Source of the DNA: Camelus dromedarius
Lineage: Eukaryota
Reading direction: 5' to 3'
DNA: 64,000 bases
NCBI RefSeq assembly: GCF_036321535.1
Contig: NC_087436.1
Location: 54,562,001-54,626,000 of the forward strand
Part shown: positions 6,640-64,000 of the stretch, piece after piece
Numbering within the stretch: the stretch's first letter is position 1
Layout of the letters: each line of letters starts with the position of its first letter
Position numbers and translations under genes: made by a program
Notes under the pieces: model-generated
What the model was told of the DNA's origin: nothing
What the model saw: only the letters and a program-made list of their open reading frames with translations
The model's database searches: none

Positions 6640-8200
6640 TTGATGAACTTTTCCGGCACCTGTCTAAGGCTCCCTAACTCCGTCATGTACTGGATCAGGG
6701 CGTCTCTCATAGAAGGACATTACTTCAGCAACTCTCCTCTCCCCTTTCATCATCAACACTTCTCTTCTAGATCATCCCAGCACCAGACAAACAGATTCTT
6801 ATCACATTTTTTAAGTTCTTGGCCGATCCCTCCTTTCCTCCAGTCACTGCTGCATGTCTCTGTCTCCACTTACTGCAAACTTCCTTAAAATATTTTCTGT
6901 GCTCACTCTCCCCAACTCCTCTTTTTTTTATTCTCCCTTGAAGCTAAGAGGCTTTCACTCTCCACACTGCACAGAAACCACTTTTGTCATGACCAGCAAT
7001 AATTGCCATGTGGCCAAATCCAGTTGGGTTCTCAGTCTCCCTCCTACCTGTTAGCAGCATTTGACTGAGCACGTGACACTCTGTGCACGACATCCAGGAC
7101 AACTCCCTGTCCCACTGAGCAGCCATTTTCAACTTCCTTTTCCAGTTCCTTTTCATATCCCTAACTTTATTAAAGGTGGAGTGCTCTTAGGCTCTGCTTT
7201 TCAATTTCTGTTTTATCTCACAACCTTGATGACAGTTTTAAATGCTACCTTTATGTTGACAAGGTCCCATGTTTTACCCCCAGTCAAGATCTCGTCACTG
7301 AACTTCAAATATCAAACCCCCAGTTGGAAGTCTCATGTGCATTTCAAAATTTCCATATCCAAATCCTAACTTATGCATTGACTCATCTCCTTCACACCCT
7401 CATGCAGTCAGTAAGAAAATCCTACTGACCCTGCTTTCCAAATATATACAAATTTCAACCAACCTCTTTTTATAACTTCTTGCTGCTACCACTGTAATCA
7501 GCTTTTCTCTGAATTATGGATGTAACTTCCTAATGGGACTCCTTGCTTCTATGTTTGCTCCTCCAGGTGTCTATTCTCAAGACCAAGACCATAGTCAGAA
7601 AATACCAACTGAAATATAAATCAGATTAAATCTCTCCTCTGTTCAAAACCCTCCATGGCTTCACTTCTCAACCTATGTAAAAGCTAAAATACTTACAATG
7701 GTACAAGGCCCTATGCAACATACCTGCTTCCACCTCTAACCAATTACTCTTTCATCTCATCTCCTACTCACCTCCCCGCAGCTCACTGCACGTAGGTGAC
7801 ACCGTCTAGCTGGCTGTTCCTCATACTTGCTTTTGTTCTTGCTGCTTTTGATGCCTGGAAACCTGTCCACATGGTCCACTCTCTTTGTCTTTGCTCACTT
7901 GTCACCTTCTCACAGAGGACTTCCCTGGCCACACTGAAAAACTGGAGCTCTTCTCCCCCAAGGACTTCTCTCTCTTGTCTTCTTTTCTAGGTAGTCATAT
8001 TCTAATAAACTATAGACATACTTGGGTTTTGTTGGGTTTTAATATGTTTCTAAATATTATAGTGTAAGTTCCATAACACTAGGTATTTTTGTCTGATTTG
8101 TTGACTGCCATTTCTTCAGGGCCTGGAACAGTGCCATATACTTACTAGGATCTCAATAAAGAGCGGTTAAATGAATGGATAAAAGAATGAATGAATGAAC
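6640..8200 (+). mobile_element. L2 LINE 3' fragment
   Basis: C/T-rich L2 body motifs (ctgttcaaaaccctccatggcttc) ending in the L2 tail gggcctggaacagtgcc...ctcaataaa...(gaat)n. Confidence 0.8.
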
Positions 8201-9183
8201 TGTGGAAGGGCTAGGTCTCATCTGCAGCTAAGTGCAATCCATGCTATGGAATCTGGGTTCTTTTTCTTACTGTTTAATTGCCATGTTGGGGCCCACTCAT
8301 CCCGGGTAAAGGTGTGGAACTCCCATAGTTTTAGATCTCTTACTTAACTCCGTGTAGTATCGTGAAATTTGGAAATTCCTGGTGATACTTTCTCTCTCTG
8401 CTGATGTTTTCCTGCATCACAGAAGTTATTTGTACTTACCCTGATTGTCCCAGGGCTGATGAAACACTCCAGTCAGCTTTGCTAAAAATTAGAAAGTATA
8501 AATGAGAATTTGTAGGATTTTCTTGACTCATAGTTTCCTAAGTATTGCATTTTGGGGGGCAAGACAGGGCAAAAAAAATACTTTCTTTTTTTTTTAAACT
8601 GAGATCATCTGTGTTATTTTTGTTGGCTACTACTTTTTTTTTAGGTTGAGCATCTTTTTGTATCCCTCTCATAGCTTTGGTCTTGCTGGTGAATTTTTTT
8701 GTTATTTTTACTATTTTTCTTCATTTTGTTAAATACCAAAGGAGTAAGATGTTTTCAGTACTGTTTTAATCCTCTATCTTTGCAGGAAGTCTACTTGTTT
8801 TATTTTATTTTTAAACATGAAGCAATATTTAAAAATAAATCAGCAGTCTGTGCTATTGGCATGTTTTTGTTTCTTTGTTTCTTATTTTAGCTAAAGTGTG
8901 CAGTTACTTGTTGCAAGTTTCAAGACCCTTATATTTTTATTTAGGCTGCTTTTTTATTTTTCCAGCTGTAGATTTTACTGTGAGAATTTCTAGCTAACAT
9001 TTTCCTAAACTGTATGATTATATACTTTTCTTTCGTTTTATACATGAAAGCACTTGTTTTGTGATTTATAAAAGTCTTTATAATTAAATAACAGCAACTT
9101 TCAGCAAGTATTACTTATCACCAAGAGCAAAAAAGTCTTCTCAAATGCAAAAGCAGATCTTCGTGAGACTTTCCTTAATCACC

Positions 9184-9371
9184 TTTTTTTTTTTAATTGA
9201 AGTGTTTTTTTTCTTTACATTTTCTTGGTGATTTTACTTACTTATTTTAGATTTTTTTTGAGGGGGAGATAATTAGGTTTATTTATTTATTTTTGGAGGC
9301 CATACTGGGGATTGAACCAGGACCTTGTGCATACTAAGCATGTGCTCTACCACTTGAGCTATACCCTCCCC
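9184..9371 (-). mobile_element. tRNA-derived SINE, camelid vic-1-like, long-tail form
   Basis: Reverse strand reads ggggagggtatagctcaagtggtagagcacatgcttagtatgcacaaggtcctggttcaatccccagta (A and B boxes), then an A-rich tail. TSD ttccttaatc at 9171-9180 and 9378-9387. Confidence 0.85.
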
Positions 9372-11198
9372 AAGATGTTCCTTAATCTTAAACTTCATAA
9401 TATAAAAATGGAAGCAAATGGACTTTTTATTAAAACTCTTTTAATACCTTGCATGAAAATGACACATAATATGATTTCAAAAATACTCCTCCCACTTAAG
9501 GAACATTACTCCTCATGAAAATGTTCTCTACAACTTTAAAAGTCTACTGTTTAAAGGTGGGCAGCTTCAGAAATGAAAACTTAGTCATTGTTTGAGAGTG
9601 CCTAGCGCATGGAGGACCCACAAAGACTAAATTGAGTATTTCTTTCTTAAAATTCCTTGATTTAACAAACATATGCCCTAATTACATACCTTTATTTTCA
9701 GGAAAGAGTAAAGGTCTGTGGGATTCTGATTTCTCTCCAGGGCTGGCTTAATAAGTGCTGTGTGTAACTGCTTCTTCCTGCACATGGTCAGGAGAACTGG
9801 TTCCCAGGCTGTTAACTGTTAGAATTTGTTAAGCCTCAGTATCAATCAATTATGTTGAGGCAACAGGAGACTTGGAATACGTAACAGAAAGCATAGAAAT
9901 AATGAAAAATATAGGAATCAGGAAAACATGCACATGAATATGCTAAGAATGGAAAAATTCATAGTGATAGCTTGCTAATTTATGTTTTCCTTATCAATAT
10001 TTTGAAACGACATGCACTTCCCTGACAGACATAGCATACAACAACTCTAAGACTGTTGCAAAAAGGAGACAAAGTAAGGTGCCGTGGACACTTGGGGGAT
10101 TACTGTTTATGTTGCTGAAATTTTTTAAAAGTATTAACTCACCATAATAATCTTTTAATTATCGTTTCCAAGTAATGAGTGTAACATAATTCAAAATAAT
10201 TTAATTAGCTAACAAAGAAATTAGCAGAAATATATGTTTGTTTAAAATAAAAGAAGTATATCTTTCACTATTAGTGAGATGATTGATTTCTTTTGGTAAA
10301 TGATTCCTCAAGATGTGAAGAATGATTGGGAAAACATACGATAGGACAGAAAAGTATTGCCTTTTTCCTGTTATATTAGAACTTAACTGGGGCATTTATA
10401 TCAGTGTTACATATTTTGTTTATGTAATCTGATAAATAATGCTAATGACATTTATTAAGTATGTTATGCTAGATACTACAGTGAAGTGATTGTCACTGGA
10501 CATGTAGTAAAGGACGTGGTATCAAAAGCTCTTTATAATTAATTTCTATCTGTTTTTAGGTTGAATTGGCAAGTTGTCAGAATTGTATATGCTACCTGCA
10601 TGTGTTATTTTCTGTTTGGATTATCCTTAATACTTGGAGGAAGTAAAGGAAATGAGTAATACTTCAAAATTACTTAATCATTTTTATTTTAAATAATGCT
10701 ATTTTTCTGGTATAACTCATCTTAAATAATGCTTCTTTTGTTCTATGTAAAACAGTGACAGGAATTCCTGCTTTTTTTTTAAAAAATATGGAGTTACACA
10801 GGAGATATTTATTTTTCTTAGCATTTTAATATAAATGTTGCATTCTTTTCTCTCATGGAGTCGTGAACTTCCAGCTAAAGTGTAACAGCAGAAAAACAAA
10901 CAACTTCTAAAAAAATATTTGGCAGACAAAATGAATGCTCCATGGTGATTCTCACCTTTGGGGACAGTCAAAGACAATGCAGGTATATTTGTAAGAGATT
11001 ATTAGATAAGAGAAATGATTCACACACCGCTGGGAAACACATACTGCTCTGCGGGAACTTCCTTCAGAGTTAGGATGTTTCTAAGAGAATGCATTAAACT
11101 GTACAGATGTCTACACAAGCATAGAGGGCATGTGTATGACTTCCCAACAGAAAGATCATTTCATTTTCCAAACCTAATGTTTTCTTTCCACCTTCTAG

Positions 11199-16442: not shown

Positions 16443-19400
16443 ACTTTTTTTGACCGAAGCATAGTTGATTTACAATGTTGTGTTAGTTTCTAGTGTACAG
16501 CAAAGTTATTCACTTATATGTATATTATATTCTTTTTCAAATACTTTTCCATTATAGGTTATTACAAGATACTGAATATAGTTTCCTGTGCTATACAGTA
16601 CGACTTTGTTGTTTATCTGTTTTATACATAGTAGAGTGTATTTGTTAATCCCAAGCTCCTAATTTATTCCTCTCCTCACCTTTCCCCTTTGCTAACTATC
16701 AGTTTGTTTTCTATGTTCATAGGTCTGTTTCTGTGTATAAGTAAGTTCATCTGTTTCACTTTTTTTAGATCCCAAATAGAAGTGATATATGATACTTGTC
16801 TTTCTTTGACTTCACTTCCTATGATAATCTCTAGGTCCATCTGTGTTGCTGCAAATGGCATTATTTCATTCTTTTTATGGCTGAGTAGTATTCCGTTGTA
16901 TACATAGATACTACATCTTTATCCATTTATCTGTTGGTGGACACTCAGGTTGCTTCCATGTCTCGGCTATTGTAAATAGTGCTTCTGTGAACACTGGGAT
17001 GGATGTGTCTTTTCAAATTAGAGTTTTCATTTTTTTCCAGATATGTGCCCAGGAATGGGATTGCTGGATCATAAAGTAAGTCTATTTTTAGTTTTTTAAG
17101 GAACCACATGCTGTTCTCCATAGTGGCTGCACCAAGTTATATTCCTACCAGCAGTGTAGGAGGGTTCCCTTTTCTTCACTCTCTTTCCAGCATTTATTAT
17201 TTGTAGACATTTTGATGATGGCCATTCTGACTGATGTGAATACCTCACTGTAGTTTTGATTTTCATTTCTCTGATAATTAGTGATGTTGAGCATCTTTCT
17301 ATGTGCCTATTGGTATGTCTTTGGAGAACTGTTAGGTCTTCTGCCCATTTTTTGATTGGGTGGTTTATTTTTCTCATATTTAGCTATATGAGCTGTATGT
17401 ATATTTTGGAAATTAAGACCTTGTAATTTGCATCATTTGCAAATACCTTCTCCTATCCCATAGGTTGTCTTTTCATGTTGTTTATGGTTTCCTTTGCTGT
17501 ACAAAGGCTTATAAGTTTGATTAGGTCCCCTTTGTTTATTTTTGCTTTTATTTCTTTTGCCTTAGGAGACTGACCTAAGAAAAGCTTGCTGCGATTTATG
17601 TCAGAAAATGTTTTGCCTATGTTCTCTTCCAGGAGTTTTATGGTGTCATGTCTTATATTTAAGTCTTTAAGCCATTCTGAGTTTATTCTTGTGCAGTGTG
17701 AGGGAGTGTTCTAAGTTTGTTTATTTACATGCAGCTATCCAGCTTTTCCAACATCACTCGCTGAAGAAACTGTCTTTTCACCATTGTGTATTCTTTCCTC
17801 CTTTGTTGAAGAGTAATTTTTAAATTTATTGAGTGTTGCTCTGTGGCCTAACATGTAATCTATCCTGGAGAATGTTCCAGGTGCACTTGAAAAGAATATG
17901 TTGTCTGCTGCTGTTGGATGCAATGTTCTATGTATGTTTTTTTCAGTTCACCTCATTTAATACATTTTTTAAGGCCAGTGTTTCTTATTGATTTTCTGTC
18001 TAGATGACCTGTTGGTATAAGTATGATGTTGAAGTCCCCAACTAATAGGTGTTGCTATCAGTTTCTCCCTTTATGTTCAATATTTGCTTTATGTGTTTAA
18101 TAGCTCCTATACTTGGCTCATATGTATTTACAATTTTTATGTCTTCTTGTTGGGTTGATCCCTATTTCATTATGCAGTGTCCTTTTTCTATTGTTATAGT
18201 CTTTAACGTGTTTTGTCTGAAAAAATGTATTGCTATCCCAGCTTTCTTTTTATTTCCCATTCCCTCACTTTCATTCTGCATGTCTTTAGAAATGAAGTTA
18301 GTCTCTTGTAGGCAGTATATATGTGAGTCTTTTTTTATCCATTCAGTTACTCTGTCTTGATTGGGGTATTTAGTCCACTTACATATAATTATTGATAGGT
18401 ATGTACTTATTGCAAATTTGTTAATTGTATTGGGATGGTTTTTTACCGTTTTTTTTTGTTGTTGTTGTTGTTGTTCCTTTCCCCTTCTTTTGCTCTTTTC
18501 CCTTATGATTTGATGACTATCTTTAGTTTATTTTTGGTTTCCTTTCTTTTTTTCTATGTGTAGGTATTAGATTTTTGGTTTGTGGTTACCATGAGGTTCA
18601 TATGGCCATATATGCATATAACTACACAGTACTTTAAGTTGATGATCTCTTAAGCTCAAACACATTTTTTAAGAACCTTGCACTTTTTCTTCCCCTACCA
18701 TGTTCAGTGTTTTTTACGTCATGCTTTGTCTTTTTGTTTTGATTGTCCCTTTACTTATTGTGGATAGTGATGATTTTACTACTTTTGTCTTTCAATCTTT
18801 CTACTTTTATAAGTGGTTGATCTGCTACCTTTACCATATGTTTACCTTTACCAATGAGATTTGTTCCTTTTCTAATTTCTACACTTCTATGTGTGGTCTT
18901 TTCCACTTAGTTAAGTCCCTTTAACGTTTCTTTTAAAGCTGGTTTAGTGATGCTGAACTCTTTCGGCTTTTGCTTCTCCATAAAACTCTTTCTCTCTCCT
19001 TCATACTGAATGGTAGCCTTGACTGATAGAGTATTTTTGGTTGTAGGTTTTTTCCATTCATCATTTTGAGTTTATTGTGCCACTCCAATCTGGTCCACAA
19101 AGTTTCTGCTGAAAACTCAGGTGATAGTCTTATGAAAGTTTCCTTGCACATAAGTTTCTCTTGTTTTATGATTACTTTTAATTTTTTGCCATGTTAATTA
19201 CAGTGTGTCTTGGTATGGTCTTCCTTGGGACCCTCTGTGCTTCTTGGACCCAAAAGTCTGTTTCCCTTCCTAGATGAGGGAAGTTTTTTTGCTGTTATTA
19301 CTTCAAATATGTTCTCTACCCCTTTCTCTCTCTCCTCCTTTTCAGATCCCTATAATGCAAATGTTAGTATGCTTGATGTTGTCTTAGAGATCTCTTAAAC

Positions 19401-23071: not shown

Positions 23072-23345
23072 AAAATCCCAACCTCTGATTTAATCCTCCC
23101 CACTCTCTCCCCACCCGGGTAATCAATAGTTTTCTGTCTCTGTGAGTCTGTCTGTTTTGTAAATAAGTTCATTTGTATCGGGGTTTTTTTTAGATTCCAC
23201 ATATAAACAATATCATACGGTGCTTTTCTTTCTCTTTCAGGCTTACTTTACTTAGTATGATGATCTCCAGGTCCATCCACATAGCTTACATTCTAATGGT
23301 AGAGACAGAAAATGTAAATAAGTATTTATTTAGGGAATTATAGAT
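23072..23345 (+). repeat. Direct-repeat copy of 24543-24827
   Basis: Near-identical 274-bp copy spanning an L1/L2 junction. Confidence 0.95.
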
Positions 23346-24264: not shown

Positions 24265-25150
24265 ATATTTACTGATTCAACAAATGTTTATTGAATTGAA
24301 TACCCACTATGTTCCTGGCACTAGGCATGCAGGGATGAGGAAGATGACTAAGATTCTAGCCTCCTAGAGCTTGCTATCTATCTGAAGTATTGTTGATCTA
24401 CAATGTTGTATTAAATTCTGGTGTACACATAGTGATATTCGTATATTTTTTAATTATAAGTATTTCATTACAAGGTATTGAATATAGTTCTCTGTGCTAC
24501 ACAGTAGGACCTTGTTGTTTAACCATTTTATATATAGTAGTTAAAATCCCAACCTTCTGATTTAATCCTCCCCACTCTCTCCCCACCCGGGTAATCAATA
24601 GTTTTCTGTCTCTGTGAGTCTGTCTGTTCTGTAAATAAGTTCATTTGTATCGGTTTTTGTTTTTTTTTTTTTTAGATTCCACATATAAACAATATCATAC
24701 AGTATTTTTCTTTCTCTTTCAGGCTTACTTTACTTAGTATGATGACCTCCAGGTCCATCCACATAGCTTACATTCTAATGGTAGAGACAAAAAATGTAAA
24801 TAAGTATTTATTTAGGGAATTATAGATGGTACAAATGAAAAAGTAAGGGCATAGAAAGGAGCCTGATGGTGGTGGTGGGGCTGGTCTTTTAAAAATAGGG
24901 GTGGCCAGCAACAGTCTCTTTGAAGAGGACCTTTCAGGAGAGACATTTAAGCATTGAGGGGTCATTACGGGAACAGTATGAGAGGAACACCTTCTACTTA
25001 GAAGCATCAACAAGTGCAAAAGCCCTTAGGCCAGAGTGTGTGTGGTATGTTTGGGAAGAGCAAAACAATTAAGAGTGTCTGGAGCAGAAGGGGAATGTGG
25101 TAGAAAATTAATTTGGGTGACTAGTTAAAAGAAAACTCGTGTAGGACCCA
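24265..25150 (-). mobile_element. L2 3' fragment interrupted by a 5'-truncated L1 3' UTR (about 24383-24764, also minus strand)
   Basis: attcaacaaatgtttattga is the antisense L2 tail. L1 piece tgaagtattgttgatctacaatgttg...tccaggtccatcca. Degenerate TSD agcttgctatcta/agcttacattcta. Confidence 0.75.
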
Positions 25151-45130: not shown

Positions 45131-45734
45131 AGGAAGGGGGAATAAATAGAATTGCCCCAGTCTTCCTTTCTTAAATCATAGAACAGTTTAGATTAGTATT
45201 ACAGCTTTGGGGGTAATTCTGTGAACACTGGTTCATTATTCTTTTGTATTATTTTATAAGCACTTGTATTTATATTTATATTTCTCTTTAATTCAGTAGT
45301 TACTTAAAATGCTCTTTTTAGATTTTTGAATGTTTGAGAGTTTATCCCTGAAGCCTATTTAGTTCTAATTTTATTTTTTTTCTGAAACATTTATTTGTTC
45401 ATATTTTAAATAAATATTAGAGCTTTTCCTTTACTCTGTTATTCAGATTACTATTTTCCTTTAGGCTGCATTATATTTATAGGAATTGTATAAATATATG
45501 TTTTCCTCATGCATTTAAAAGAGGACATCTATGAAAAATCTGCATTTTCTGATAGCAGGATGTATGAATTGCCCTGACTGCTCTCTGTCATCTGATTGTG
45601 GAAATAACTTCATTTTAATTTTATCCTGCTGGAGTCATGTATCCCAACAAACTTCCAGTGTTTTTGCAGACCACCATACTGAGGGCTAATTCCAACTGCC
45701 CTGCTTCATGCTTCTCTATCAGAATGAAAATTTA

Positions 45735-46165
45735 ATTAATTAATTGAAGTATAATTGATTTACAATATTATATTAGTTTCAGATGTACAACCTAGCGATT
45801 CAATATTTTTATAGATTATACTCCATTTAAAGGTATAAAATATTGGCTATATTCCCTGTGCTGTATAATATATCCCTGTAGCTTATTTATTTTTCACATA
45901 CTAGTTTGTACCTCTTAATCCCCTGCCCCTATCTTGTCCCTCATCCCTTCTCTCTCCCCTTTGGTAACCACTAGTTTGTTCTCTCTATCTGGGAGTCTGT
46001 TTCTTTTTGTTATATTCACCAGTTTGTTTCATTTCTTAGATTACATATGTACATGATATACAGCATGTGTTTATCTGACTTATTTCGCTAAACATAATAC
46101 CCTCCAAGTCCATCCAAGTTGTTACAAATGGCAAAATTTCATTCCTTTTATGACAGAATAGTATT

Positions 46166-46208
<43 letters not shown>

Positions 46209-46560
46209 CACATTTTGTTTATTCTTTATCTGTTGATGAACACTTAGGTTGCTTCCATATCTTGGCTATTATAAGTAATATTGCTATGAACACTGGCATA
46301 CATGCAGCTTTGCAATTTAGTGTTTTCCTCTTCTTTCAGTACATACCCAGGAATGAAATTGCTGGATCATATGGTAGTTCTAATTTTAGTTTTTGGAGGA
46401 ACCTTCCTACTGTTTTCCAAAGTGGCTGCACCAATTTACATTCCCACCAACAGTGTACAAGGATTCCCTTTTCTCCACATTCCTGGCCAACATTTGTTAT
46501 TTGTAGACTTTCTGATGATAGCCATTCTGACAGTGTGAGGTGATACCTCACTGTGTTGTT
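45735..46560 (-). mobile_element. Young L1, 3' half of a split element
   Basis: taattgaagtataattgatttacaat 3' terminus. ORF2 end [16 protein letters not shown]...LELPYDPAI (46336-46587). Confidence 0.9.
46169..46206. repeat. (GT)n microsatellite, about 19 units, within the L1 3' UTR
   Basis: Read directly from the sequence. Confidence 0.95.
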
Positions 46561-47211
46561 TTTTTTTTTAATTAAAGTATACTTCAATTTTTAAAAAAAG
46601 ACATGGATAAATTAAATACAACAGTCAACTCACCTAATTTAGTTGTTAAGATATAAAGCTCACATCCCCTAGACAATGTACATTATTTCGTGTATACACA
46701 GAACACTGACAAAATCATCATGTACTAACTTGATCATAAAAAAGGGAATCATTTTTGAAAATCACATTCTTGAATCACAATCCATAAAATTAGGCATAAA
46801 GAATAAAAGGGTGACCAAAAACTCTTAGATACTTGAAACATCCAGATAACCTTGAGATGAAAGAGGAAATCAAAACTGAAATAACATACTATTTGGAAAG
46901 CACTGAAAAAGAGAAGACAAAACCTTTGAGACTCAGTAAAAGCCACGGAGGAAATTTACCACCAGGAGCACCAACACTGAAATGCTTTAGCCCCAGGACC
47001 CCTCCTCTGCAATTTTTTCACATGGTCACAATTTTATAATGATTGAAAAGTAAGGTGCATCTACGTCCTTTCTCTTACAGAGCCTTTCCCAACACCTATC
47101 CCCAATTATATGAGTCCCACAAAACCTGGATCTGTTCATTTTAGTTTAAAATGCCTTCATGACTATGAGGTTCCTATAACCAGATCTATCAGGATGAAGT
47201 CGCTAAACTAT

Positions 47212-47390
47212 CAGTGTTTACCTGCTGGCATTTGGGAGGGACAAGTCTGTACTGAATTGTACCATCCCTGAACATTGCAGGCTATTTAGCATCCCTGCCC
47301 CCTGGGGACTAAATGCCAGTTGTCTCCTCTGCTCATTTTGACAGGAAAACTAAATCTCTCACATACCTGGAGGTACTACTAAGCATTGTT
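47212..47390 (-). mobile_element. MER20-like hAT-Charlie remnant inside the 2.3-kb block
   Basis: cattgcaggctatttagcatccctgccccctggggactaaatgccagt...tgacaggaaaa. Confidence 0.6.
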
Positions 47391-48640
47391 CAAGACCTAT
47401 GTGCTGGATTTCAATCAAATAGGAAAATCAGGCTGGATTTTCAACCATCTCAGAGCTTCTCCAACAAAATCTATCGCCATTTTATTCAAACCCCAAGAGA
47501 AACACTCCCTTTGGAAGCAAGGCTCTTGCAGTGTCTGGATGGAATAAACCGAGTTTGGAAATTTACTTCTAAGAGCCATACAACCAGGACTCTTGCAGCC
47601 AGATGGAGCAGATCAGTTTGCAGCCCGGCTACTTCCCAGGCATGCGTGTGACTGGTTACTTCCTAAGATCAGCTTTCTCCTTTGTAAAAAGTGCTAGAGT
47701 TTCACCTCTCACCTGAGCAGATAAGTAAAATGCCTGCAGGGGTCTGGAGGACGGTTATTCTCCAATATTACTTCTTTCTCCTAGCCATCTTGGTCTCTCT
47801 GGGGAGTTTTCTGGAGCTGGGCCTGACCACTGTCGGAGCACCCTGTTGAAAAATTGGCCATCTTTCGAAGTTACCTCCTTCAGGGGGTGTGGAACACATT
47901 TCTCCCTGGGAGAACTGAGACATGGCCCAAGGTCCTACACCTCTGGACAGAACTGAGATGAATTTATAGCCTGTCAGAGTCTCATGCTGGTGGGGGATGG
48001 ACAAGCTTGGGAAAGAATGCCAGACACTACCCCTAAATGTGAAGTCATAAAAAAGTGAAGGGAAAAGAAATGCCCAGACAGGGTGAGTCAGAATATATAT
48101 AATGCATTTAGATAGTAGGCCTACACAGAGCAGATTCTACGAGAATCAGGCCAATTTGGTATATGCACGGAGAGGTAGTCCCATCAGCATTGTGTTTAAT
48201 AGTGCGATTTCGGGAGGCAAAATGCCAATCAAGGAATAATTAACCAGCATTTGATACATAAACCATAATAACCAGAGGGTTGGATTCCTTGATAATCTAA
48301 AACCACCTGCAGCTTTGAGATTCTACCATCATATATTTATCCCCTCACAAATATGTAGCAGGTTCCTGGGATACACCAGGAACTTTGCTGGCTACTTTGA
48401 TACAACAGTAACATAAAGTATAAAGAAATAAGCATCTGATGAATAAACAAACACCTCCAGCAATTCCACTCCCAGGTACACACCCAACAGAAATGCAGAC
48501 ATGTGTAGAACAGAGAGATGTGAACAAAAATGGTCATAGCCATATTACTAGTCAGAGCCCCAAACAGAAATTACCCCCATACCCAACCCAATAGAAAAAA
48601 TAAACAAAATGTAATCTATTCCTACAACGTGGGAGGTTTT

Positions 48641-48751
48641 TTGGGGGGGGGGGGGGTTATGTTTGTTTGTTTCTTAATGGAGGTACTGGGATTGAATCCA
48701 TGACCTCATGTATGCTAAGCATGTACTCTACCATTGAACTATACCCTCCCC
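48641..48751 (-). mobile_element. tRNA-derived SINE, camelid vic-1-like, short form
   Basis: ggaggtactgggattgaatccatgacctcatgtatgctaagcatgtactctaccattgaactataccctcccc. TSD aa(c/t)gtgggaggtttt at 48626-48640 and 48757-48771. Confidence 0.88.
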
Positions 48752-48868
48752 TCTTTAATGTGGGAGGTTTTGATGAGGGAAGTGAAGTAACCCACCGGGT
48801 GGAGATGTTGGGACAGACACCAGCAGATATTTCCCAGAGACAATCCATCATGTGTCTCCACTGCAAAA

Positions 48869-49812
48869 ACCTCACTGTGGTTTTGGTTTGCATTTCACTA
48901 ATCATTAGCCATGTTGAGCACCTTTTCATCCATCTGTTGGCTATCTGTATGTCTTCATTGGGGAAACGTCTGTTCAGGTCTTCTGCCCATTTATTGATTG
49001 GGTTGTTTGGTTTTTTTGATACTGAGTTGTATGAGCTTTTCGTATACTTTGGATATTAATCCCTTGTCAGTCTCATCATTTGCAAATATTTTCTTCCATT
49101 CCTTAGGTTTTTTCATTTTGTTGATGGTTTCTTTTGTTGTACAAAAGCCTTTAAGTTTCATTTGGTCTCATTTGTCATTTTTGCTTTTGTTTCCTTTGCC
49201 TTAGGTAACAAATCAAAAAAATATATATATTGCTGTGATTTAAGTCAAAGAATGTTCTGCCTATGTTTTCTTCTAGGAGTTTCATGGTTTGCAGTTTTAC
49301 ATTTAGATCTTCAATCCATTTTGACTTTATTTTTGTATATGGTGTTAGAGAGTGTTCTAATTTCATTCTTTTACAAGTAACCATTCAGTTTTTCCAGCAC
49401 CAATTATTAAAGAGACTGTCTTTTCCCCATCTGTGTATTCTTACTGTCTTTGTTGTAGATTAATCAATCATAAATGAATGGGGTTTATTTCTGGACTCTA
49501 TTTTGTTCTATTGATCTACATGTATGTTTTTGTGGCAGTACCATACTGTTTTGATTATTGTGGCTTTATAGTATAGTCTGAGTCAGGGAGTGTGATACTT
49601 TCAACTTTGTTCTTTTTTCTCAAGATTGCTTTGGCTATTCATGGCTCCATATACATTTTAGTATTATTTGTTCTAGTTCTGTGAAAAGTATCATGGGTAT
49701 TTTGATAGGGGTTGCATTAAATCTATAGATTGCTTCAGGTAGTATGGACATTTTAACAATATTAATTCTTCAAACCCATTTACACAGGCTATCTTTCCAT
49801 CTCTTTGTATGA
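48869..49812 (-). mobile_element. Young L1, 5' half of the split element (ORF2 C-terminal region, 5'-truncated)
   Basis: Collinear continuation of 45735-46560; [25 protein letters not shown]. Outer direct repeat gaaaattta at 45726-45734 and 49813-49821. Confidence 0.9.
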
Positions 49813-49869
49813 GAAAATTTATTTTTCACTAACTGGAGACAAATATTTACTTTTGGGGACACTATACAA

Positions 49870-51256: not shown

Positions 51257-51405
51257 CTCAGTCCATTTTTAAGACATTCTGTTCTGAAAAGAACATTTAA
51301 TGTCACTCTACCAAATCCTTTCCCAATTAAGAGAGAAAGTGCTTCTATTACGAAACAAAAAACCAAACAAATACGCCCAGGCAGCAAAGTAGAATCTTCT
51401 AAATG
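51257..51405 (+). CDS. Candidate coding exon (149 nt, phase 0-2) of a second unidentified gene B (possibly a pseudogene)
   Basis: Acceptor tattcttgtttgcatatccacag| and consensus donor ATG|gtaagt. Only one frame is open: LSPFLRHSVLKRTFNVTLPNPFPIKRESASITKQKTKQIRPGSKVESSK. Not recognisably a repeat. Confidence 0.45.
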
Positions 51406-52211
51406 GTAAGTGTGCTCACTTGTTCTCACTGAATCATATGGCTGCTACATTTTTACAGTCCATAATTTAACTGTCACACAGACTCTCTGGACCAAATAAT
51501 ATTTTTCTGTCTTTGAAGCAATATATTTGCATTTCTCTTCTAAAGATTGGTTATGTTTATGGCCCCAAGTAGTAACTAAGAGATTACAGTAGAGGACAGT
51601 CTGCATGCCTCTAGAAATAAGTGCTAATCTGGTCAAGAATAGCTATTACATTTTCATTTTTATAAAGTCTGCTTTTCATTTACCTTTGATACCAAGATAG
51701 AAGAGTTACCTTAATGAGGTGAAGGTGACAGACTTTCTTTTAATTAACTTATCTTTTTTAATACTAAATAATCTAAAAATTAATGCCATGCTTTAGTCAG
51801 TTATTGTAGATTGCATCTCATTGACATTTAGGTTTTTTTGAGTTTACACTAAGAATAGATAAATAGTTAATAGATACTGATTTATGGGTTAAGCACTGAG
51901 TATATAATAATGACTATGACAGTGGTCTTGACTTTGATTTTTAGAAGGGACTGGATGTGAACTATCTGATGTTATTGTAGTCCATACAGAAACTCCTTTT
52001 CATTTTAGTATACATACCACTAAGTGGCATTATATTTCAGGAACTTACTGAGATTATATTATTAGGGAACTCCAGATTCTAAACAGAAAATGACTTATTA
52101 AAGCAATACAATATAAAGTTTTGTATCTAAAATATCATTAGACTACTTACTGGTGCAGTAGATCAAATTCATAGAGATGCCCTTCAAGTTTATTCCTGCT
52201 ACAGTCTAGAC

Positions 52212-58783: not shown

Positions 58784-58933
58784 TGAGATACTTACTACGG
58801 AAGAAACGATACAAGATTTTGGGAAGGACTTTTGAGCCAACAGTATTCAGTCAGAGATAAAACTTTGAGTGATGGTGATTAACGCAATGAAGAATATAAT
58901 TTCCTGAACAATAAGAAAGCCACACAGAAGAAG
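58784..58933 (+). pseudogene. Exon-like relic (150 nt, phase 0-0) with two in-frame stops; candidate decayed exon of gene B
   Basis: Acceptor ttttctttatgtttttttgaaag| and donor AAG|gtaaca. Frame 0 reads *DTYYGRNDTRFWEGLLSQQYSVRDKTLSDGD*RNEEYNFLNNKKATQKK. Confidence 0.33.
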
Positions 58934-61149: not shown

Positions 61150-64000
61150 TTGTGGGCATGTGCACAGAGGAGGCAAGGCTGGAGTCTGGGCTTATTCCTG
61201 GCACTCCCACAGTGGGTCAGGGTGTGTGTCTTCAGCCAATCTGTGCTGGTAGCTTTGTGAATGCAGTGCCTGAAGGACATCCATGCCAATTGCTAGCTTT
61301 CCCACAGCTGAGGTGGGCTGAGGGCAGTGCCAACAACGGTGTACTTTGTGAGCCCACAATGGGTGACAGGTGAGATCACAGAGCACATGTCCTGGTAGAC
61401 AGCTCCTGCAGAGAAATGCTCAGTGGCTTTTTTCTAAGTGAGAGTGCTCCAATCCTGCCTACCTCACACTGCAGCTTAGAAGTGGATCTGGAGGCTTCTA
61501 CTCCAATAAATGGAGAGCAGACCCTGCCCCCCAACAGGGCTGTGATGACCACAGAAAAAGAGGAAGCCATGTCTAATATCCAGTACAGGCTCTAGTTACC
61601 ACAACACCAATCACACTCCCTATCAGAGAGATGACTAATGGCCAGCACACCCTGAGGAAAGATGTGGCAGGCATCCAGACCAAACACAGCCCCTGCAACA
61701 AAAGTAACAGACTCACACAGGCTACGCAGGAATGCTTCTACATAAAAATAGACCTTCAAGAACAAAGTAGATAGCTGTTTCTCCTAAATCCATAGTCAGG
61801 GAAATATAAGTGAAATGGAGAAGCAGAGGAATTCCTCCCAATTAAAAGAGCAAGAGAAATTCCCTGAAAAAATAAACAATGAAACAGACATTTTCAGTCT
61901 ACCAGAACCCGAGTTCAAAAAGGACGTAATAAAAATGCTGAAGGAATTTTAAAAAGTTGTCAATAGAAATGCAGATCACTGTAATAAGAAACTAGAAACA
62001 AAGAGGAGCCACTCAAAATTAGGCAACTCAATTCCTATGAAAACTGAGCTAAAGGCAATAAATAGCAAACTAAATAATGCAGAAGAATGAATAAATGCTC
62101 TGGAAGATAGAATAACAAATCACCCAATCACAAAAGGAGACAGAAGAACAAGTGAAAAAAAGTCAATATATGAAACCTATGGAATATAAAGCATGCCAAT
62201 CTATGCATAATAGGAATCTGGGAAGGAAAAGAGAAAAGAGGATCAAAAATGTATTTGAGGAAATTATAGCTGAAAACTTCCCAAACTTAAAGAAGGAAAC
62301 AGATATCCACTTTCAGGAAGCACAGAGGGTCCCAAACCAGATGAATCCGAACAATCCTACACCAAGACATATTATAATTAAAATGGCAAAAGTTAAAGAG
62401 AAAGAGATGATTCCAAAAGCAGCAAGAGAAAAAACAGAGTTAGTTTCAATGGAACCCCCATAAGGCTATCAGCTGAATTCTCTACAGAAATGTTGCAAAC
62501 CAGAAAGAAGTAGCAAGATATATTCAGAGTCCTGAAAGGGTAAAAAACTAAAACCTAGGGTACTCTATGAGGCAAAATTATCATTTAGAGTAGAAGGAGA
62601 AATAAACAATTTCTCAGACAAGCAAAGACTGAAAGAATACAGCAATACTAAACCTATTCTAAAAGAAATATTGAAAAGTCTTCTCTAAATAGAAAAAAAG
62701 CAAGAATCTATAGGAAAGGAAAAAATCACAACAGAGAAAGCAAATATATAAAAGGATTGTAGATCACTTAAAAAGGCCAGGATGTAATTTCTTTTTAATT
62801 ATGAAAGCTATCATAATTAAAATGAACAGTACAAGGATAAACATGAAGATGTTGGCAGGACATCAAAATCATAAAATGTGGGGGAGGGGACTAAGAAAAT
62901 GTAGATTTCCTTTTTTTTATAAAGTGCTTGAGCTTATATAACTACTAGTCTAAAGCAAGTAGATTCAGTACTAGGTTAATATACTTAAAAACCAGGGTAA
63001 CCACAAATCAGAAACCTACAATAGATTCACAAAAACCAAAAGAAACCATCAAACCACAAAAGGAAAAATGAAAAGAAAAAGAAAGGAACAAGGAAAAAAT
63101 GGAAAATCAACTGGAAAACCAAGTTTAAAATGGCAATAAATACATACCTATCAATAACTATCTTACATGTCAATAAACTAAATGCTCCAAACAAAAGACA
63201 CAATGTGACAGACTGGATAACAAAATAAGAGCCTACAATATGCTGCTTACAAGAGACCCACTTTATGGTGGAGGACACACATAGATTGAAAGTGAGGGGA
63301 TGGAAAAAAAACGTTTCATGCAAATAGTAATGACAAGAAAGTGGGGATAGCAATACTCATATCAGACAAAATAGACTTTAAAATAAAGGTCATAAAGAAA
63401 GATAAAAAGGACTTATAAAATGATAAAAAGATCAACACAAGAAGAGGATATTGTACTCGTTTAGCATATATGCACCTAATATAGGAGCACCTAGATACAT
63501 AAAATACTAATAGACATAAAGGGAAAAATTGATGGGAATACAATAACAGTAGGAGACTTTAACACTCCACTGACATCAATGGACAGATCTTCCAGACAGA
63601 ATGAGTAAGGCAACAGACACTCTTAAGTGACACCATAGAACAGTGAGACTTAATTGATACCTTCAGGACATTACATCCAAAAAAAAAAAGAGTATACTTT
63701 CTTTTCAAATGCACATGGAACATTTTCTAGGGTAGACAACATACTGGGGCATAAGACAAGCCTCAACAATTTTAAGAGGATTGAATTATTTCAAATGTCT
63801 TTTCTGACCACAACGGCACACAATTAATAATCAACCATAGGAAGAGGAACAAGAAAAGAATGATTACGTGGAGATTAACCAACATGCTACAAAAAAACCA
63901 ATGGGTCAATGATGAAATCAGAGGAAATTCAAACAAACAAACAAAAAAGTCTCAAGACAAATAACAAAGAAAATACAATCGTACAAAGTCTTTGGGATTC
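61150..64000 (+). mobile_element. L1 5' portion: 5' UTR, disrupted ORF1 (about 61815-62688), spacer, disrupted ORF2 endonuclease from 63130; runs off the window
   Basis: ORF1 FEEIIAENFPNLKKE...QEAQRVP...TPRHIIIKM. ORF2 start MAINTYLSI, CCLQETH, IYAPN, GDFNTPL. Stops and frameshifts present. Confidence 0.92.

Follow-up and report, generated by a model that had tools for sequence, protein, structure and literature searches.

How a 2.3-kb block of ancient repeats came to lie inside an L1 element of the dromedary genome, flanked by a direct repeat and a run of T, is the question raised by this locus, which lies in a 64,000-nucleotide stretch of a Camelus dromedarius contig (hereafter the window). 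An original prediction, made from the letters alone, held the block to be an orphan transduction or a retrocopied RNA that had entered a young L1. The interrupted element, here called the host L1, lies on the minus strand from 45735 to ∼49810 and is broken by 2.3 kb at 46560/48869, with its 3′ half (3′ UTR and the end of ORF2) at 45735–46560 and its 5′-truncated upstream half (ORF2) at 48869–49810, both assigned from the junction motif, uninterrupted relatives and divergence. As predicted, the L1 resumes collinearly at 48869: the junction motif is present only once in three uninterrupted L1 copies (at 17242 and 27522 in the window, and at position 8629 of locus L039), so the two halves are one element and the duplication between them is a true one. 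The predicted outer direct repeat is also there, a plus-strand 9-mer at 45726–45734 and again at 49813–49821 that flanks both halves and is the probable target-site duplication of the host L1, though its support is modest because such a 9-mer recurs at 33 of 3000 random window positions. The GC-richer middle of the insert is equally real (0.49 at 47600–48100 versus 0.28–0.37 in the L1 flanks). The recipient site lies 5′ of two late plus-strand coding exons of STPG2, one at 51257–51406, downstream of the insertion and identified by protein match, and a second at 58785–58832; the insert is antisense to this gene. Both exons are 96% identical to a Camelus ferus protein, the remaining exons lying beyond the window, and with the earlier ones off the window the insertion site is probably within an STPG2 intron.

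The insert junctions carry the marks of L1 target-primed reverse transcription. The two plus-strand copies of the 16-bp duplication, 46545–46560 and 48869–48884, agree at 14 of 16 positions, as originally described, and their length falls within the range of ∼5–25 bp; they share the 11-mer ACCTCACTGTG, which is found in the window only at 46545 and 48869, while an exact repeat of at least 11 nt with the left junction occurs at 2 of 3000 random window positions. The predicted run of 11 T after the left copy is present at 46559–46569, the remnant of the poly(A) tail of a minus-strand insertion, but its first two T are also the final bases of the duplication, leaving nine T beyond it. The right copy is preceded by 4 A and ends in TTTT before G, an endonuclease-type site; this nick site reads TTTT/GG in the window's right copy and TTTT/GA, CTTT/GA and TATT/GA in the three uninterrupted relatives. 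TTTT/G is among the endonuclease sites listed in PMC12016303. The T-run and TTTT/G are both at the end where a minus-strand insertion should have them; the right end of the insert has only the 4 A before the duplication, with neither an endonuclease motif nor a signal hexamer.

The donor of the copied segment could be located. A search of the animal's own genome (G000) with the insert returned one long paralogue on another contig, C16, at 20695621–20697376, plus SINE matches (among the best 40 of 5948 candidates), and two unique sub-pieces of the insert each gave two candidates in the genome, the insert itself and the paralogue; these searches revealed no sibling copies bearing the same tag. 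The paralogue (positions 7622–9377 of locus L016) is part of the last intron of USP43 and aligns to window 46575–48344 over 1835 columns, of which 1468 are identical and 144 contain gaps, the window's minus strand corresponding to USP43 sense. It covers nt ∼482–2237 of this 7583-nt intron, beginning ∼480 nt past the splice donor. The exon upstream encodes a peptidase domain (PF00443) and is 99% identical to camel USP43, and when the full USP43 protein is mapped, the donor falls between the exon encoding residues 729–784 and that encoding 784–1146. A search with the USP43 protein found no USP43 exon in the window, and the copy is wholly intronic; among 120 USP43 proteins, none matches the last intron or the copy, and none has a C-terminus encoded by the last intron. 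The proposal of a segment copied from another locus through RNA by the L1 machinery is thereby upheld: a second copy exists, and the insert is an RNA-derived, L1-type target-primed insertion carrying USP43 intron sequence. A donor at another locus accounts for 1770 of the ∼2300 bp, the 520 bp at the 5′ end being without one. The donor match stops abruptly at L016:7621 (position 20695620 of C16), where part of the USP43 intron may have been deleted, and the sequence beside this point looks like a cut L2 relic.

Given this donor, it is extremely improbable that the block is an assembly artefact, or that two independent L1 pieces merely flank ancient local DNA: a mis-join is incompatible with 12.5% divergence between insert and donor, the two L1 halves line up as one element around a duplication, and sequencing runs contain the insert. 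Words sampled from it were present at 0.97–1.00 in 14 of 24 runs, and without four runs from a possible source sample they remained at 0.97–0.98 in six studies with three organism labels. Since the donor shares 42 of 2001 31-mers with the insert query, these runs hold the copy itself, which speaks for its presence and not for its position. Insert words also occur at 0.83–0.85 in two RNA runs of one study, at 0.49 in two unlabelled runs and at the small shares of 0.16, 0.10 and 0.00 elsewhere; STPG2 pre-mRNA or DNA carry-over would explain these, and we do not count them as evidence of expression.

The divergences remove the age paradox that had drawn attention to the locus. Insert and donor are 87.5% identical over 1674 ungapped columns, with K2P 0.139 (0.114 without CpG; bootstrap 0.12–0.16). 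The host L1, supposedly young, stands at K2P 0.22–0.30 from the other L1s of the window, and its closest scored relatives are 77–80% identical with gaps (best 40 of 18,445 candidates); as it is older than the copy, there is no paradox to explain. The truncated L1 that adjoins the donor segment scores 80–85% identity over full length, and up to 87% on part. Judged from these divergences, the order host L1, then donor L1, then copy is consistent. Under a generic mammalian rate near 2.2e-9 per year, the copy would be about 32 million years old. The rate of 2.5e-8 per 5-year generation given in PMC8605555 would make it about 14 million years old, and the two figures roughly bracket the camel/llama split, placed at 11–25 million years in PMC1939714. 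The copy has diverged evenly along its length (11 bins, χ2 p = 0.37) and its CpG count has fallen from 28 to 15, both as expected under neutral decay, and function appears unlikely; the copy probably does nothing. Separated by 1.5 kb, two other L1 pieces of the window (23072–23345 and 24543–24827) share 93% identity over 285 bp, well beyond what other L1 pairs in the window show, suggesting local duplication or gene conversion.

Which RNA was copied is a separate question. We favour, at about an even chance, that the insert is a 5′-truncated retrocopy, made by an L1 in trans, of an intron-polyadenylated USP43 RNA. On this account, a germ-line USP43 transcript would have left its last intron unspliced, and the RNA would have been cleaved and polyadenylated ∼25 nt into the 3′ end of a truncated L1 that lies antisense in this intron. 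Acting in trans on this RNA, the ORF2p of another L1 would then have made a nick at TTTT/G in an L1 of the STPG2 region, older and already dead, and reverse-transcribed ∼2.2 kb, halting short of the upstream exon and so producing an intron-only, 5′-truncated retrocopy with a 16-bp duplication, which would since have decayed neutrally. In its support are the single donor in a USP43 intron with a minus-strand copy in USP43 sense, the placement of T-run and nick motif, the uniform divergence, and the absence of a USP43-sense L1 body upstream at the donor. The promoter of the RNA, the polyadenylation step and the ancestral status of the unmatched 5′ part are what we infer; a USP43 promoter is not proved, because the copy includes no exon.

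The donor L1 (∼724 bp, L017:357–1080) is 5′-truncated and antisense to USP43, and its tail adjoins the copied segment; the copy takes in ∼30 nt of this tail region before the T-run begins, ending ∼25 nt inside the antisense L1. The original description of the insert as essentially without an L1 body is therefore not wholly right, given this stub of the donor L1 3′ end, at 46570–46599, a near-palindrome centred on TATA at 46578–46581 whose two strands both permit a reading as L1 end. The donor and the minus-strand reading of the copy both have C at position 14 of that end, a base found in one of 18 other L1 3′ ends (G in 11, A in 6). In the copy, TTTAAA, which we count as a variant poly(A) hexamer, begins 26 nt short of the tail, and at the donor a GU/U-rich stretch lies just past the break point. 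Against the USP43 retrocopy count the lack of a canonical AATAAA or ATTAAA before the tail in the copy, the absence of TTTAAA from the present-day donor, the want of any exon in the copy, the lack among 120 USP43 proteins of a C-terminus encoded in this intron, the 5′ 520 bp, unmatched in ∼227 kb around the donor or elsewhere, and the last 8 nt before the tail, which are two changes from the donor-type L1 end where a fold-back, discussed below, needs one. It is known that the 3′ ends of antisense L1s can supply poly(A) sites, which are reported to be twice as frequent on the L1 minus strand with hot spots in the L1 3′ end (PMC2553571), and intron-only RNAs ended at cryptic poly(A) sites have been retroposed elsewhere (PMC1687206).

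Around the donor L1 itself, we found no flanking duplication beyond T6. Old L1-like DNA lies on either side of it, with pairwise scores not above shuffles; a 3-copy profile gave one weak match (E 0.006), PDB matches included no ORF2p, and genome matches were self and paralogue only. Translations of 46600–46950 resemble part of a very old L1 ORF2, its endonuclease and linker region, with weak statistical support from that profile match (E 0.006). The 3′ end of the donor L1's family (L017:357–381 and others) is an imperfect palindrome around TATA, and such palindromic ends can leave the strand of a junction ambiguous.

That ambiguity leaves room for a plus-strand 3′ transduction that started from the donor L1 and involved twin priming, the two cDNAs being joined at the TATA palindrome. 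In this scheme, the first cDNA would have been primed at the right end, leaving 4 A, and the second on the L1 A tail, giving the T11 and ∼12 nt; we regard both the scheme and these details as unlikely. The donor L1 3′ end points into the copied segment, which is textbook geometry for a transduction, and beyond the T11 (46570–46589) the plus strand differs from an L1 end at one position, the minus strand at two. A palindrome with an arm of 10, as at the left junction, occurs at only 5 of ∼64,000 window positions, and cDNAs overlap in 42% of germline 5′ inversions, by a median of 12 bp (PMC12016303), such overlap thus being frequent in germline inversions. However, the donor L1 is 5′-truncated and therefore without a promoter, the right end offers just 4 A with neither endonuclease motif nor poly(A) signal hexamer, and the inverted parts described in the same source are usually hundreds of bases long. 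Twin priming would also make the donor's rare C a coincidence, while the palindrome folds no better than shuffles (z = 0.02), so that no stable hairpin is indicated, and L1 3′ ends are partly palindromic by themselves. The longest palindrome of the window lies elsewhere, at 62789–62826, near-perfect with an arm of ∼15 nt and one mismatch.

A related fold-back is similarly doubtful. Here both nicked strands would have been primed on A-runs of one RNA running antisense through the USP43 intron, the canonical nick making ∼12 nt and the non-canonical end 2.2 kb, from an RNA that a promoterless truncated L1 would have had to supply. If it were true, the insert would represent twin priming in reversed proportions, with a truncated L1 as the transduction tag.

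The other rival is the orphan transduction of the original prediction, now on the minus strand, in which a lost full-length L1 in USP43 sense would have read through ∼2.2 kb or more to the truncated L1, its source never having become fixed or having been deleted along with the missing 5′ part. The junction hallmarks fit this equally well, the donor match breaks off just where the source, lying upstream, would have sat, and precedents exist: PMC13009371 describes orphan transductions ending at a truncated L1 ∼2.4 kb downstream of the source, and also sources absent from the reference. Yet no L1 in USP43 sense, full-length on the same strand as required, lies upstream at the donor in L016–L018, one 53-bp match 13 kb upstream apart; the genome searches gave no sibling copies; and transcribed USP43 already provides RNA of that strand. 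The name orphan transduction thus wants a source element, and we consider both the read-through and the disappearance of its source to be poor candidates, though a lost source may still account for the missing L1.

The upstream end of the insert, 48345–48868, has no donor that we could find. Neither strand of 23 loci (∼227 kb) around USP43 contains one, comparison with 1.6 kb on the upstream side of the donor match is not above shuffles, and genome-wide none appears among the best 40 of 48 candidates or the single candidate (1/1) of a further search; the best genome matches are generic repeats at 69–79% over 80–170 bp, or short pieces. The simplest inference is that this part represents ancestral USP43 intron which the donor has since lost by deletion. 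The alternative is a second template, either by a switch from USP43 RNA to a second RNA for the 5′ 520 bp or through DNA copied in by break repair, and we hold this to be highly improbable. The lack of a donor for the 5′ part in the assembly is what speaks for it, but a second donor should still match at ∼87%, and DNA-level copying does not predict a duplication, T-tail and nick motif together. An origin of 48345–48868 as spliced exon was rejected, with no match around USP43 and no USP43 exon in the window.

Two repeats lie within this part. The predicted old L1M relic is present, a plus-strand L1M-type 3′ end at 48457–48628 (nhmmer E 2e-28), and no match extends it into 48757–48868. A minus-strand tRNA-derived SINE at 48641–48756, which we take to be vic-1, has a tRNA-like head and is 86–90% identical to 13 of 13 fetched relatives; its own plus-strand target-site duplications, 48626–48640 and 48757–48771, agree at 14 of 15 positions. 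The proposal to order events by asking whether this SINE is present at the donor comes to nothing, because the whole 520-bp part that bears it is missing there. The insert also contains what we presume to be MER20-like and MIR-like relics, dispersed copies of which our searches did not find; MIR/MER20-type relics would simply have been carried along passively with the copied segment. A cargo of snoRNA or miRNA was considered and rejected, none being found in the insert: the only Rfam match there is the tRNA-like head of the SINE, and L016 and L017 have none.

Set against known kinds of insertion, the copy resembles several and differs from each in some respect. With 5′-truncated retrocopies made by L1 in trans, that is, processed pseudogenes, it shares a cellular Pol II RNA, a poly(A) tail, a duplication and an endonuclease site (as described in PMC12016303), but it is wholly intronic, without the exon or splice junction of the classical definition. 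Like orphan L1 3′ transductions, it moves unique flanking DNA, shows the same hallmarks and has hardly any L1 body, and the operational definition in PMC12350158, an insert that aligns outside exons, would include it; the 9q31.3-1 orphan case of PMC13009371 likewise ends at a downstream truncated L1, and PMC4859970 adds further cases. Unlike these, however, the copy has no source L1 present and our searches gave no siblings, and its RNA ended in an antisense, not a sense, L1 end. Type-2 snoRNA retroposons (PMC1687206) are also retroposed intron RNA, some ended at a cryptic intronic poly(A) signal, but no snoRNA lies in the insert or donor region. The short inverted end of the insert could be an overlap of the kind seen in twin-priming 5′ inversions (PMC12016303), although the inverted part would here be only ∼12 nt plus the T-run, and the end that carries the endonuclease motif is the wrong one. 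The insert is a clean, ordinary product of L1 retrotransposition, of a mechanism class long known. Among the papers that a search for this USP43/STPG2 locus brought up, none concerns it, as judged by title and the opening of the abstract.

The locus offers a well-resolved case, in a camelid genome, of L1 moving unique intronic DNA and old repeats between distant loci, and it illustrates that old repeats in a younger-looking element require no special mechanism. Without its SINE, the unmatched part may preserve ∼390 bp of ancestral USP43 intron, and the insert may be a trace of an intronic poly(A) site that an antisense L1 once supplied and that has since disappeared. On a milder reading, intron-only retrocopies would document, as fossils, intronic polyadenylation sites once used in the germ line and intron sequence that the parent gene has lost; if so, they could be mined genome-wide. 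The insert could also be used as a presence/absence marker for camelid phylogeny. Finally, the three insertions nested here (the host L1 at 45735, the intron copy at 46560 and the SINE at 48640) all seem to lie on the minus strand, each with its T-run to the left, and the two inner ones, the intron copy and the SINE, both lie at TTTT/G sites.
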